This document shows, one piece after another, positions 699 to 20,700 of a stretch of DNA of 43,914 nucleotides. Every line of letters starts with the position of its first letter. Positions within the stretch are counted from its first letter, which is position 1. The stretch comes from Candidatus Staskawiczbacteria bacterium (GTDB taxonomy: Bacteria > Patescibacteriota > Minisyncoccia > Minisyncoccales > Staskawiczbacteraceae). The notes under the pieces were generated by a model. It did no database searches, was not told the origin of the DNA, and saw nothing but the letters and a program-made list of their open reading frames with translations. The DNA is taken from NCBI GenBank assembly GCA_023245195.1, contig JAHFKU010000003.1:1-43914 (forward strand), in the 5' to 3' direction. A program made the translations under genes and the position numbers.

Positions 699-735
699 AC
701 GTTTATAATATAATTAATGCAACCACAAAAACTCA

Positions 736-771
736 ATACCCTAAATTGTAAAGCTTTACAATTTAGGGTAT
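736..771. repeat. 36-bp perfect palindrome, copy 1, next to the stop codon of the PaaX/Cas2-like gene
   Basis: ataccctaaattgtaaag|ctttacaatttagggtat; identical to the core of 1324..1367. Confidence 0.97.
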
Positions 772-772
772 G

Positions 773-1303
773 TCATATTTCTTCTATTAAAAATACTTTT
801 ACAAATTTCTCTAGCGAGTAAAATTGGATTAATTTTTCTGTTTCCTCTGAAACATCATAAGGCGTTACCCAAATACTTTGTTGAAACATTTTATACTCAA
901 GACTATGCAAAATACTTCTTAGTAATTGTCGAGATTTTTTATATTTTTGAGGAATATCAAAAGTCAACATAATCCATTTTCCATCTTTTCGTTTTTTCTT
1001 TTCCCCTTTTGCAAAACTTGCCTTCAATGCCTTACCCAAACCATCTTTGGTCAAAACAATAGCTCTATTTCCCTTTAAATCTAAACTTCTTATAAGGCCT
1101 CTCTTTTTGAGAGAATATACTAATTTATTAAACTTTGCCTTATTTTTCTCGTCTTTGTATTTTTGAAAAATAGGATTTTTAGTTTGCCACAAAATTGCCC
1201 ACTTTGCAGCGCGGGGATTTAACATAAAAGCCGCAACATTTTCTGTTTCCATGAGAATACTATACATATCCCACAAGAATTCTTCGGTAACCCGTAATTT
1301 CAT
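773..1303 (-). CDS. PaaX-like protein (wHTH-like N-terminus plus Cas2/VapD-like C-terminal domain)
   Basis: LKKRGLI..IVLTKDG wHTH wing, then WIMLTFDIPQ..RQLLRSILHSLEYKMFQQSIWVTPY, matching the PaaX central/Cas2-like fold. Confidence 0.8.
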   Translation of the reverse strand: MKLRVTEEFLWDMYSILMETENVAAFMLNPRAAKWAILWQTKNPIFQKYKDEKNKAKFNKLVYSLKKRGLIRSLDLKGNRAIVLTKDGLGKALKASFAKGEKKKRKDGKWIMLTFDIPQKYKKSRQLLRSILHSLEYKMFQQSIWVTPYDVSEETEKLIQFYSLEKFVKVFLIEEI

Positions 1304-1323
1304 GATTACTTTTTCTTTAGTTT

Positions 1324-1367
1324 AATAATACCCTAAATTGTAAAGCTTTACAATTTAGGGTATTATT
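1324..1367. repeat. 44-bp perfect palindrome, copy 2, upstream of the PaaX/Cas2-like gene; contains TTGTAA-N17-TATTAT on both strands
   Basis: aataataccctaaattgtaaag|ctttacaatttagggtattatt. Confidence 0.97.
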
Positions 1368-3923: not shown

Positions 3924-4436
3924 TTAGAAAAAAGACGCATCGATAGTGATTTCTCTTTTGACTTCTTGCAAATGATTAAATGTAATCGAGATTAGATTGC
4001 TTCGCTTCGCTCGCAATGACGTTACGATTTTTTCCGGCCATTCAATAGCTACAATATTTTCTGGATTTGAAATAATTTCATCAAAATGCAAAAATTCCAC
4101 GTCTTTTTCATTTTCCAATCGATACAGATCAAAGTGGTAAAAATACTGGTAGAACAAATTACCAACGTTCGTAATTTGTTCTACTTTTTTATTTTTGGGA
4201 ATTTGGAATTTCTTCATCACAATGAAGGTTGGACTGTTAACCACCTCCTTGATCCCCAAACCTTTTGCAAAACCTTGTAAAAAGGTAGTTTTGCCGGCCC
4301 CCAAATCTCCCCGCAATGCCAAAACGACTGCCGTTTTTTGCGGCTTTGCGGCCAAAATTTCGCGCGCGAAATTTTGGCCCACCATCTGCGTCTCTTCAAA
4401 ACTATTTGTGTGGATTACTTTCATTGACTTTTGCAT
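3924..4436 (-). CDS. tsaE: tRNA t6A37 biosynthesis ATPase TsaE
   Basis: LRGDLGAGKTTF, VNSPTF, YHFDLYRL, AIEWPE. Confidence 0.96.
   Translation of the reverse strand: MQKSMKVIHTNSFEETQMVGQNFAREILAAKPQKTAVVLALRGDLGAGKTTFLQGFAKGLGIKEVVNSPTFIVMKKFQIPKNKKVEQITNVGNLFYQYFYHFDLYRLENEKDVEFLHFDEIISNPENIVAIEWPEKIVTSLRAKRSNLISITFNHLQEVKREITIDASFF
3994..4021. repeat. GTCATTGCGAG..GCAATCT repeat inserted in-frame in tsaE
   Basis: agattgcttcgcttcgctcgcaatgacg encodes TSLRAKRSNL; same family as 17527..17644. Confidence 0.85.
4149..4184. repeat. 36-bp near-perfect palindrome inside tsaE
   Basis: gtagaacaaattac-caacgttc-gtaatttgttctac encodes VEQITNVGNLFY. Confidence 0.85.
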
Positions 4437-17644: not shown

Positions 17645-17660
17645 AATAATTATGAAATCC

Positions 17661-17694
17661 ATCCCAAATTACTACGATCGTAGTAATTTGGGAT
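17661..17694. repeat. 34-bp perfect palindrome
   Basis: atcccaaattactacga|tcgtagtaatttgggat. Confidence 0.92.
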
Positions 17695-17706
17695 AGAGAT
17701 GATGAC

Positions 17707-17763: not shown

Positions 17764-20700
17764 TTACGGTACGATCGGGAAAATGTCCATTCTGAATATT
17801 TTTCTATTTTGGTCTACAATGTCATAATTGGCTAAATCTTGTATTTTGCCTGGGGAAATATAGCATTGGGCACCATCAGGGAGCCCGTTTTTACTATAAA
17901 GAATGGTTAAAAAGTTGCCACTAGGCTCTATAGCTCGGGTGCATGGATAGGCAGCACCAGTGGGATCGCAATTTCTGTCTGCTAAACAAGCGTCACCGTG
18001 GGAAGAATTTGGAAAAGAACATATTCCACTGGTGGGACTAGTCCCTGGACCTAGTAATTGCACTTCTTTATTGCATTCACCTTTAATGCCATTAATACTG
18101 CACTCAGTATCTAGTTCGCAAGGTTTCTGTGCGGGAAGAATAACGCATTTTTTAGTTTCAGAACACCATCCAGATGGCGCGCCACAATCAGCATTGGTGC
18201 CATTAGCATTATTATCAACCGAACTGCAGGGTGTATTAGAGAAAATTGGTATTTTGTAAGCCGTTATACATTTTAGGGTTTTTTTATTGCAATAACCAGA
18301 ATTTTGAGTATTAGGAAGTTGCGCGCAAGTGTCTTTTCCTGCAGCCGCCTTATCTGTGCCATAGTATTTTGGGTCAGTTAACAAGTCATCAGGCCCACCA
18401 TTATATTTAAAATGTTCTCCGGGGACACCATTATTGTATTCCCCGTTCTCTGTCATATAATATCTGCCAATAAAGGCAAATTTTGGGCCAACTAGCCTAT
18501 TTCCTTGGACTCGTGGTTCGCCCTGTGTTGCTGGGCCACCATCTTCATATATGCTTACCCCACTTCCAGAAAAGTCTGAATTATTAGCTTCAGCGGATTT
18601 TGAATTCAATCCTTTTATAATATAAATTGACGTAGCGGGGAACTGTTCGCATTGGCTGGTGTTTCCAGTGCCACCTGATCCACCGCCTCCACTACTACCC
18701 GAACCACCACTGCCTCCTCCAGAACCACTGCCGCAATCTGCAGGACAATTTGTTGAATCTTCATCGGGGTAATCACATGTACCATCGCCACATGTTACAC
18801 CAGGAACATCTTCTGCCAATATTGCTCCATTAAATCCGCTTAATATTGATGCAGGGTACAAGACTGCACCCTGCTTCGCTTCACTTGCTAAAACGAGGGG
18901 CAGATTATTTTTTATGCTAACCTCATTGTTTGGAGCTTGTTCATTTTCGGGGTATAAGCTCGTGCCCTGGTTCGTAAATGGTAGGATTCCTAAAAATGAA
19001 GCCAGTGGAGGGTTTTGGTTATTAAATGGCAGGGCGCCAGTATCAATTATGCTACAAGGTTGATCAAGCCGGCATTCGTCAAGTTCGGCTACCCCCGGTC
19101 TTTTATTTGCAACTAACATACACCTATTACCCGAAATATCTGGATCTGTTGATGCCTTGCAAATGGTGTGGAAGTTTGGATTAGAATTAACTTGGCAATC
19201 CGGGAAATAAGTGCACTGGTCGGTACCTGGTCCAAATACTAAGTCGCACGTATGATCCATAAAATTACATTCACTATGAAGGTAACCTGTTCCACATCCT
19301 CCAGAGGAAGGATTGCAATATCCATATCCATGGTAACCAGCTAAACATTGACCATCGATGTCGCAAGAGAATCCGCAATCACTGGCGCTAGTACAAGCTA
19401 CTCCACCATTATTATTTCCAAGCCGACATTGATTAGTTGCAATGTCACAAGAATAACTAGTGGTAAATTGTTGTGGGCAATCAGTGTCAAATTCGCACCA
19501 GGGCAGTTGTGGGCCTACTGCGCCCGGAACACAGGTTCCAGCCAAACAATGAGATGTACTAGTATCTATTTGACCAGAACAAGTTTGCGCGTCACAGCTA
19601 GTTCCCGATAATCCAGGAACACATTTTTGTGTGCTGGTGTCACAAGTTATTCCTGTTTTATTTGAAAGGAAACAGGTTGCTGGATCGCAAGTAAGTCCGG
19701 GTAATCCAGGAACACATTGTTTTAAATTAGTATCACAGGTCATTCCCGATCCTACTACTGCAGTAGAACATTGTTGGGCATCACAAGTCAGCCCAGGTAA
19801 CCCAGGAACACATTGTTTCGTGCTAGCATTGCATGTTATTCCCCCTGCCACTGCAGTAGAACATTGTTGGGCATCACAAGTCAGTCCAGGTAATCCAAGA
19901 ACACATTGTTTTGTAGCGGTGTTACAGGTCATGCCTCCTGTTGGAGGTGGCGGCGGCGGTGGAACCGGGACATTGCAAGGGTCGCCGCTTTTTGAGGTGC
20001 TACTACAGCCGTCATTGGTGTATGAACTTGTTCCAGCGGGTCCGCAAATACCACCACTGCCACCCTTTGGCGCACTGCACTTAAAGCCAGTTGAGGGTGG
20101 TAGCTCACAAGGACTTCCTAGTAAGCATGGATATCCATTTTGGAAATAAAACTTGTCGGTAGTACATTGATTATTTGAGAAATTACAATAACCTTTAGGG
20201 CCATTGCAATCAGTCACTCCAGGAGTACATTTTATTCCACTAGTTCCAGTTTCCGAGCATTGAGAATATGGGTTAAATAGGCTTGTAGTAGTGCAATAGC
20301 TTTCGGGTTCGGGTGGTGTGCAGGCGGGATTGCCTATTCCACCATTCGCATTGTTATTGCTGAAGTTGCAAGGAATGCAGTCTTCAAGGGCGGGATCACA
20401 ACTTTCATATACGCATTGCTGGGTGTCGGGGTCGCAGTAGCCGCCGCATTCGGTATCGCTCGTGCAATCTGCGCCAGTGCCGTTGGGGCTGCAACTAGGT
20501 GTAGGGCTAAATTCATCGCATTTGCTACCGGCACAGTCGATATTGTTAGTGCAAGATTGTTCGCCAACACCATAAGGACTACAGGTGGGCTCAGGGGCAA
20601 AGGGGTCGCAGTGGGCGCCACTGTCGATATTGCAATCATCGTCGTTGTTGCAACTTATACAGTCTTCTGTTTCGGGATCACAAGTGGATTCCGCCTCGCA

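Follow-up and report, generated by a model that had tools for sequence, protein, structure and literature searches.

Positions 736–1,367 of a 43,914-nucleotide stretch of Candidatus Staskawiczbacteria DNA (assembly GCA_023245195.1, contig JAHFKU010000003.1; this whole stretch is referred to as the window) comprise a small gene that lies between two copies of one palindrome. The copies are part of a 37-nt direct repeat (735–771 and 1327–1363), which is 100% identical according to a repeat finder and the sequence read. Each repeat copy holds a perfect loop-free palindrome of 18+18 nt, at 736–771 (downstream copy) and 1328–1363 (upstream copy), and the latter grows to a perfect 22+22 palindrome of 44 bp at 1324–1367. 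A pattern search for the 36-bp palindrome with up to three mismatches retrieved exactly these two sites from the window, and two or more matches occurred in none of 100 shuffled sequences. A search for the half-site found four arms, compared with a mean of 0.11 in shuffles. The gene in between (773–1303, minus strand) encodes a protein of 176 amino acids with a PaaX_M/Cas2-like domain; its stop codon is 1 nt away from the palindrome end at 771, and its ATG is 20 nt away from the 44-bp palindrome. The arrangement, referred to as the cassette, is inserted between two co-directional host genes on the minus strand. Upstream of it lies fpg (mutM; 1384–2301; TIGR00577, 1.8e-72; Pfam H2TH, Fapy_DNA_glyco and zf-FPG) and downstream the 5′ part of holA, the gene for the delta subunit of DNA polymerase III (3–698; TIGR01128, 6.1e-42), which runs off the window start.

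The upstream copy contains the promoter-like combination TTGTAA-N17-TATTAT on both strands (1325–1366, consensus scan), and on the strand of the cassette gene the −10 hexamer (1330–1325) precedes the ATG by 21 nt. At the other end a second promoter-like element, TTGAGT-18-TATATT (707–736, minus strand), is a pattern match of a consensus scan; its −35 hexamer begins at the last base of the palindrome, and the element lies 9 nt upstream of the holA ATG. Folded as single-stranded DNA, the downstream copy reaches −13.7 kcal/mol (z = −8) and the upstream copy −17.5 kcal/mol (z = −10). The downstream copy scans as terminator-like on both strands. An Rfam scan returned only sub-threshold matches to generic hairpins (miRNA precursors). 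A preliminary description of this locus had reported two identical perfect 36-bp palindromes, one of them extended to 44 bp, one lying 1 nt past the stop codon and the other with the promoter-like combination on both strands, around a gene that interrupts mutM–holA with no cas genes or array nearby. This observation is correct in all details examined. In particular, Cas1 (PF01867) had no match in the 95%-complete genome, although control genomes gave matches, and the window has no CRISPR-like array.

Since the gene is placed between two identical repeats, an error of assembly had to be considered, in which it would have been misplaced between two copies of the repeat. Public short-read contigs from four groundwater DNA runs of one study do end exactly at the palindromes. 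One of them covers 742–1353, none of those listed covers the whole stretch, and the loose contig ends lead to other genomic copies of the palindrome. The order fpg-palindrome-gene-palindrome-holA, however, recurs in the independently assembled genomes of related species (G007 and G001, and partly G010), and the G007 cassette gene is the closest relative in the gene tree. Because independent assemblies share the layout, we regard an artefact, which the preliminary description had named among the cases that would undo its proposal, as hardly credible.

The explanation that we favour, and to which we give an even chance, is that the locus is an autoregulated palindrome-gene-palindrome module, built around a PaaX-type dimer on a private dyad and gained or lost as a unit.

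The protein combines a Cas2-like domain with a putative winged helix

The protein matches PF20803 (PaaX_M, the central Cas2-like domain of PaaX) with an E-value of 3.3e-17, whereas the Pfam models for the PaaX N-terminal domain and PaaX_C gave no match at E-values up to 0.1. Neither of two more specific families claims it: it scores 16.9 bits with the PaaX equivalog TIGR02277 (cut-off 264.55) and 20 bits with the Cas2 model TIGR01573 (cut-off 24.5). The PADLOC Cas2 models gave weak matches (E = 4.5e-5 to 7e-3), and a PHROGs search yielded nothing meaningful. No recombinase or transposase domain, and no Y1_Tnp match, was found by the Pfam search. Close relatives, from Candidatus Staskawiczbacteria and other Patescibacteria, carry the database names ‘hypothetical protein’, ‘CRISPR-associated endonuclease Cas2’ or ‘transcriptional regulator PaaX’; the best match among 5.8 billion proteins is 68% identical.

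In an AlphaFold2 model (mean pLDDT, the predicted local distance difference test, 75), the N-terminal half folds into helices plus a beta-hairpin, and the C-terminal half has the order beta-alpha-beta-beta-alpha-beta. The best fold matches of the model, all with weak E-values, are E. coli PaaX (8a39), Rv0674 (3kfw), type II-A Cas2 (5zyf) and VapD (3ui3), with Cas2 5xvn as a further match. The winged-helix-like character of the N-terminal part is visible in the structural model only. In an alignment of 36 family members, with identities down to 22%, residues T85, G88, W110, F115, D116, R125, Q141 and S143 are invariant, and all 36 sequences retain FD.P and Q.SVW, the signature residues of Cas2. 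A profile alignment places FDIP...Q.SVW on FDMP...QFSVY of type II Cas2; in the PaaX-like Rv0674 the signature positions read T...R.G, with Thr at the position of the Asp. The earlier proposal of a winged helix-turn-helix joined to a Cas2/VapD-like fold with a candidate catalytic Asp is thus supported by the model, by the fold matches and by the invariance of D116.

Bracketed genes each have a palindrome of their own

The own genome (787 kb, 41 contigs, 95% complete) encodes two further paralogues, 50% and 47% identical to the window protein. All three are bracketed by cognate palindromes, and these are of three different sequences. The paralogue on contig C24 lies between perfect palindromes of 40 bp and 38 bp with the centre GCAATTGC, the one on C32 between imperfect palindromes with the centre AAAAGCTTTT. 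Homologues occur in 17 of 24 other genomes of the genus, with up to eight close copies in a single 0.6-Mb genome, and there are at least 521 relatives among species representatives.

The preliminary description had suggested inspecting the flanks of homologues for paired palindromes. We took as close homologues the 56 rows with an E-value of 7.3e-41 or better, inspected all 56 loci, and counted a cognate pair when the palindromes of the two sides agreed to 70% or more in their central 30 nt. A cognate pair is present at 33 of the 56 loci and a divergent pair at three; a further 14 are flanked by a palindrome on one side only (two of the genes concerned are truncated by a contig end) and six have none. 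In a distant set, the 53 most distant of 80 returned loci from Patescibacteria (L143–L196 without L152; the 27 left out are near the genus set), 14 loci have a cognate pair, 13 a palindrome on one side and 24 none. Each gene has its own palindrome, and closely related genes have motifs in common. As background, only six of 683 open reading frames (ORFs) of at least 100 amino acids in the own genome score positive, and three of these are the paralogues. Since the layout recurs at many related genes, it belongs to the gene family as such and looks like a self-contained insertable module, not like a repeat that arose by chance.

The other three positives of this screen are a TrpR-like gene (C3:7663-8199; PF01371, 5.5e-14) bracketed by its own palindromes, a gene for a 108-residue helix-turn-helix-like protein without a Pfam match (C13:36613-36939), bracketed by palindromes of its own family (ATTATAACATTATATATAATGTTATAAT, about six copies in the genome), and a Y1_Tnp gene (IS200-like, RAYT-like, after the tyrosine transposases associated with repetitive extragenic palindromes, or REPs; C32:68487-69239), which is flanked by REP-type hairpins. 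The design is therefore not confined to the PaaX_M family. The preliminary description had argued that a simple autoregulator would not need a perfect downstream copy; with two ordinary-looking helix-turn-helix genes of the same genome bracketed in this way, that argument is weakened.

Long palindromes are abundant in this genome: with arms of at least 14, at most two mismatches and a loop of at most six, 192 were counted, compared with three in the shuffled genome. Repeated families of looped hairpins include TACGAATATACGAAT...ATTCGTATATTCGTA and AGAATTTCTATGCGTAGCC...GGCTACGCATAGAAATT. As a counterpart, long palindromes without a loop number 16 in the complete genome G008 (661,750 bp), which yielded no homologue, compared with 53 in the own genome. 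Those of G008 are nearly all GC-rich and terminator-like, and none is of the cassette type; one repeated terminator-like palindrome, AAAAGCGCCCCGATGTACATCGGGGCGCTTTT, occurs with close variants at five places (L197–L230).

Solo palindromes occur away from the genes

The three palindrome families are also found without a gene, as four (window family), five and three solos in the own genome. The first solo of the window family is identical to the paired copies, so that three copies agree over 36 of 36 bases; it follows an FtsH-sized ORF and stands just before a sequence that, by eye, resembles a tRNA. The second has a matching change in both arms and is extended to 58–60 bp, the third, between convergent genes, has two changes in both arms, and the fourth, with a single mispair, lies inside an ORF of the comEC family. 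Several solos of the other two families are situated between convergent genes or beside GC-rich terminators.

The comEC solo is translated in frame, in a loop. Six other species have different palindromes at this position, of which one is degenerate; five more lack a palindrome and are shorter there. The comEC palindromes of G000, G020 and G015 differ at three to four positions per arm, nearly all of which are matched in the opposite arm. In G017 a palindrome persists in comEC although no homologue of the cassette gene was found.

Further palindromes in the window resemble such solos. Two lie in frame in the gene for TsaE (3924–4436, minus strand; PF02367, 1.3e-30), whose product exceeds the span of the profile by about 26 residues: a near-perfect 36-bp palindrome with 17 of 18 pairs and an AACGTT centre (4149–4184), and a perfect one of 30 bp (4350–4379). 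They look like further solos that are translated as protein. A 40-bp palindrome at 17658–17697, with 19 of 20 pairs, a CGATCG centre and the general build of the family, may be an orphan solo, since it has no cognate gene in the own assembly.

Anatomy of the site and its position

From 82 zero-loop palindromes a core of 17 positions on each side of the centre emerged. The share of mispairs is 0–4% at positions 1–4, 6–18% at positions 5–10 and 2–6% at positions 11–17, and rises to 17% at position 18. Symmetry is thus highest at the centre, where a hairpin with a simple loop would not call for it. Read toward the centre, the pooled half-site is approximately ATA-S-Y-M-TAA-W-TTT-N-R-M-R-V, and T is nearly absent from positions 1, 3 and 4. 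Protein identity and half-site identity are correlated in a Mantel test (r = 0.18, reached by 16 of 2000 permutations). For the four central positions the correlation is r = 0.22, reached by none of 2000 permutations; for the outer seven positions it is not significant.

As described in PMC9493321, the site of E. coli PaaX is TGATTC(N27)GAATCA, and PaaX represses its own promoter. Given this span, a dyad of about 36 bp would be the expected footprint of a PaaX-type dimer.

Between the end of the upstream core and the ATG there are 23 nt in the median, and between the stop codon and the start of the downstream core 11.5 nt. The spacing of the downstream copy from the next gene, in contrast, varies from overlap up to 220 nt. 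It follows that the downstream copy is placed with respect to the cassette gene and not to the next gene. The neighbouring genes are mostly co-directional (47/53 upstream, 43/54 downstream). A TAnnnT hexamer in fixed register at the gene-proximal end is found in 26 of 35 upstream copies as opposed to 20 of 44 downstream copies, and TATAAT is matched at five or more positions in 18/35 and 14/44, respectively. A TTTT within 15 nt after the copy accompanies 11 of 44 downstream and two of 35 upstream copies.

The arms stay complementary when they change

The two copies of the same cassette were compared over the core (36 cassettes with 17 positions each, 612 in all). They differ at 98 positions. 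At 38 of these both arms have changed and still pair, at 49 one arm has changed, and at 11 both arms have changed and no longer pair. The difference rate per arm is about 0.12; by our arithmetic, independent change would lead to about nine double differences, of which about three would be compensated. As both copies presumably serve one protein, the 38 compensated positions compared with about three expected indicate that the symmetry is kept for its own sake. The self-complementarity is probably due to selection that favours a paired form, or else to copying from arm to arm. Because this constraint goes beyond reading by a protein, the DNA or RNA probably also acts, or is copied, as a hairpin or cruciform.

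One may ask whether the palindromes are simply hairpins that have nothing to do with the protein, i.e. terminators or REP-like structural elements that just happen to be common beside small inserted genes. The excess of long palindromes over the shuffled genome would fit this notion, as would the terminator-like scan of the downstream copy, the A-run or T-run flanks of several solos or their place beside GC-rich terminators, the conservation of complementarity as such, and a palindrome in G017, where no gene was detected. Yet every gene has its own pair, close relatives have motifs in common, and the Mantel correlations tie site to protein, while the gene-free genome G008 is devoid of cassette-type palindromes. 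T-runs follow only a quarter of the downstream copies, and the asymmetry between G.T and A.C mismatches on the sense strand that would betray an RNA stem is not significant (30 versus 17, p = 0.08). We therefore consider protein-independent hairpins very improbable.

The compensated positions would also fit a protein that itself handles the repeat. In such a REP/RAYT-like scenario, a domesticated nuclease with a winged helix-turn-helix and a Cas2-like domain would read its private palindrome as a hairpin or cruciform and copy, move or homogenise it. Each gene is flanked by its own repeat, every paralogue has a private family with three to five dispersed solos, three copies in the window family are identical over all 36 bases, and the arms remain complementary even where the two copies of a cassette differ. 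Moreover, the solos are insertion-polymorphic and stand in frame in comEC, FD.P and Q.SVW are universally kept in the alignment although the regulator Rv0674 has Thr in place of the Asp, and the bracketing screen also recovered a true Y1_Tnp gene with REP hairpins from the own genome. Against this stand copy numbers that are tiny beside those of REPs, the lack of near-identical gene copies (the paralogues and the best database match being as divergent as stated above), the persistence of a palindrome in comEC of G017, and the fact that symmetry is tightest at the centre, where a hairpin loop has no need of it. Furthermore, the Cas2 fold is not known to have a strand-transfer chemistry. On balance we deem this scenario unlikely, but it retains a real chance. 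A bolder version, which we consider distinctly unlikely, is a new type of replicator in Patescibacteria, made of repeat and protein: the Cas2-fold nuclease would read the palindrome of about 36 bp, keep its arms identical, and seed or convert copies across the genome, also in frame within host genes, with the gene as a kind of ‘spacer’ between two repeats. If true, the family would be kin to the part of CRISPR adaptation that handles repeats, but free-living, and would amount to another way, without an HUH enzyme, of leading the REP/RAYT lifestyle.

Gain and loss at host-gene junctions

An fpg gene was located in 24 genus genomes (own genome included), and across these the fpg-holA junction is highly variable. 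It is empty in six genomes: in five (G023, G006, G012, G015 and G017) the two genes meet in an ATGA stop/start overlap, and in G020 a gap of 15 nt separates them. Five genomes (G000, G007, G001, G010 and G002) have a cassette. Five others have a gene for a 23S_rRNA_IVP four-helix bundle, twice with a second ORF; two have a Y1_Tnp gene with hairpins (L045 in G019, L058 in G004), one has an ORF of 207 amino acids of no assigned family, and in the remaining five holA is out of reach or the contig ends. The 23S_rRNA_IVP loci are L043 (G011), L046 (G003), L062 (G008), L053 (G016) and L057 (G018), where L043 was identified by Pfam and the other four by eye from translations; short tandem repeats of the type ATAAAGTT or TCTAAAC precede these genes. 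It is evident that the fpg-holA junction is a general landing site for small genes. A fixed synteny without empty sites, which would have spoken against the preliminary proposal, is not what the six empty junctions show.

Clustering of neighbouring genes revealed further recurrent cassette junctions, between dprA and topA in nine genomes and downstream of ligA at six loci, three of which continue with an FtsW/RodA-family gene. In the own genome the dprA-topA and ligA-ftsW junctions are empty; the gaps measure 75 and 17 nt and contain no palindrome. Cassettes and solos recur beside genes for DNA handling (fpg/holA, dprA/topA, ligA, comEC). In a quick tree of the gene (55 rows), the five fpg-holA residents fall in three separate positions, those of G000 and G007 being sisters, and a FastTree of fpg alone, taken without weighing its support values, scatters the cassette-occupied genomes. 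For the six ligA-junction residents an approximately unbiased (AU) test rejects a single clade (lnL difference 110, p = 7.1e-5); this group is defined by synteny but was chosen after the tree had been seen. At one junction or more, therefore, the residents stem from different lineages of the family.

The preliminary description had proposed an excisable cassette, in which recombination between the palindromes would release the gene as a circle, with one palindrome staying behind, integration being the reverse reaction at a solo. Indeed, the direct repeats are identical over 36–37 bp, solos exist for every family, and the centre of the site is both the most symmetric and phylogenetically the most informative part, as one would expect of a crossover core. 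Furthermore, one of 13 solos (family B, C13:34228) adjoins a junction that is cassette-bearing elsewhere, since the G001 orthologue of the neighbouring gene is followed by a cassette. The predicted remnant, however, is missing: none of the six empty fpg-holA junctions and neither of the two other empty junctions in the own genome has a palindrome, and the remaining 12 of the 13 solos are away from known cassette junctions. In addition, the Pfam search gave no recombinase domain in the protein. The public contigs, which end at the palindromes and so could hardly show one, yielded no excision or circle junction. Excision as originally worded is not borne out, and we consider an excisable cassette quite improbable.

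The patchy distribution could also be that of an accessory conflict gene. The protein would then be an autoregulated toxin- or defence-like nuclease of the Cas2/VapD fold, with the winged helix merely restraining expression via a palindromic operator. The predicted kinship with VapD and Cas2, the invariant Asp116, and the patchy and multi-copy occurrence (17 of 24 genus genomes, up to eight close copies) are in line with this idea, and the junctions are shared with selfish-looking small genes such as Y1_Tnp and 23S_rRNA_IVP. Cas2-like proteins have been described in integron cassettes as likely toxins in the account of PMC3710099. Nonetheless, the cassette has no partner gene, PADLOC returned only the weak Cas2 matches and PHROGs nothing meaningful, and the downstream copy and the solos would go unexplained. 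A toxin- or defence-like role thus appears improbable to us.

Apart from these loci, the window has a tandem repeat of 93 bp (2.4 copies, 82% matches) at 19684–19911.

Discussion

The autoregulated module that we favour can be pictured as follows. By homology, the protein would dimerise via its Cas2-like domain and bind a private dyad of 34–36 bp, the geometry of which resembles that of the E. coli PaaX site, with half-sites about three helical turns apart. Judging from the position of the upstream copy, which covers the putative −10 and −35 elements of the gene itself, binding would repress the gene. The downstream copy against the stop codon would close the unit, as a hairpin-capable terminator and/or a second operator, and in the window it abuts a putative restart promoter for holA. 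The module appears to be accessory. Its presence and absence at a few co-directional junctions are observed, and from these it seems that it is gained and lost whole; it may also leave or spawn the solo palindromes found elsewhere. Finally, the palindromes follow a clear pattern of self-complementarity, which is presumably due to constraint.

Several results weigh against this picture. Cognate pairs are not detectable at 23 of the 56 close and 39 of the 53 distant homologues. Promoter-like matches in the region 600–2400 are not above shuffles (6 versus 5.3), and TTTT trails just 11 of the 44 downstream copies, so that termination is not a role common to all of them. Five solo or half sites of G007 share neighbours with the four window-family solos in none of the five cases, which argues against a conserved regulon. 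As for movement, an AU test does not reject a single clade for the fpg-holA residents (p = 0.29), so that repeated insertion at this junction is not shown. A plain operator accounts neither for 38 compensated double differences where about three are expected, nor for perfect palindromes of 40–60 bp with a symmetry that runs through the centre, nor for solos that lie between convergent genes or in frame in comEC. The module account leaves the very long perfect palindromes, their compensated evolution and the solos in coding sequences unexplained. For this reason the REP/RAYT-like scenario is kept alive.

The autoregulated module may be compared with several known systems. PaaX of E. coli and Pseudomonas is a phenylacetyl-CoA-responsive repressor. 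The cassette protein shares its order of a (predicted) N-terminal winged helix followed by a PaaX_M/Cas2-like domain (8a39), and the widely spaced inverted half-sites TGATTC-N27-GAATCA, as given in PMC9493321, are on the scale of the 34–36-bp dyads. It differs from PaaX in the absence of the PaaX_C ligand domain and of a match to the PaaX N-terminal model, in its length of 176 amino acids compared with 305–316 residues in the solved PaaX chain, and in keeping a Cas2-type Asp and the Q.SVW motif. The cassette site, moreover, is entirely palindromic with a second copy past the stop codon, while the gene occurs in several copies and varies in its sites of insertion. With Cas2 and VapD the protein would share a ferredoxin-like fold with an Asp on beta-1 (FDIP, compared with FDMP in type II Cas2), as the structural model suggests. 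Unlike Cas2 proper it scores below the model cut-off and is fused to a putative DNA-binding domain, in a genome without a detectable Cas1 and a window without an array.

Rickettsia-type palindromic elements insert in frame in coding genes, and the solos in comEC and apparently in the tsaE gene of the window are similar in this respect. The cassette palindromes, however, are tied to a cognate gene, and at one position they vary between species and yet remain palindromic. In contrast to integrons, where neighbouring attC sites differ, both flanks of a cassette bear one and the same palindrome. Insertion sequences are different in that they have near-identical copies and a transposase domain; here the paralogues are 47–50% identical, the best match reaches 68%, and no such domain was found. 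The likeness to REP/RAYT systems, the subject of PMC3116915 and PMC3337134, lies in a gene that is flanked by its own palindromic repeat, in a private family per paralogue and in dispersed copies. The cassette protein, though, is not a Y1/HUH enzyme, and its repeats are perfect zero-loop palindromes of 34–60 bp with just three to five solos per family and one copy placed over a promoter. In a literature search confined to one collection of papers, we found no description of the palindrome-gene-palindrome layout.

Candidate-phyla-radiation bacteria have very few regulators, and hardly any of their cis-elements are known experimentally. Here protein and target are paired by position alone, and the family therefore offers dozens of natural protein-site pairs from which a recognition code might be derived. 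It is also a large family, with its 521 or more relatives among species representatives and up to eight close copies per 0.6-Mb genome. The modules mark the junctions at which streamlined genomes accept DNA, i.e. fpg-holA, dprA-topA and ligA-ftsW, and they set essential genes such as holA beside a foreign control element. The compensated arms and the palindromes that are translated in frame point to hairpin or cruciform biology. If the Cas2-type Asp were catalytic, the fold of CRISPR adaptation would be linked to a sequence-specific handling of palindromic repeats outside CRISPR.

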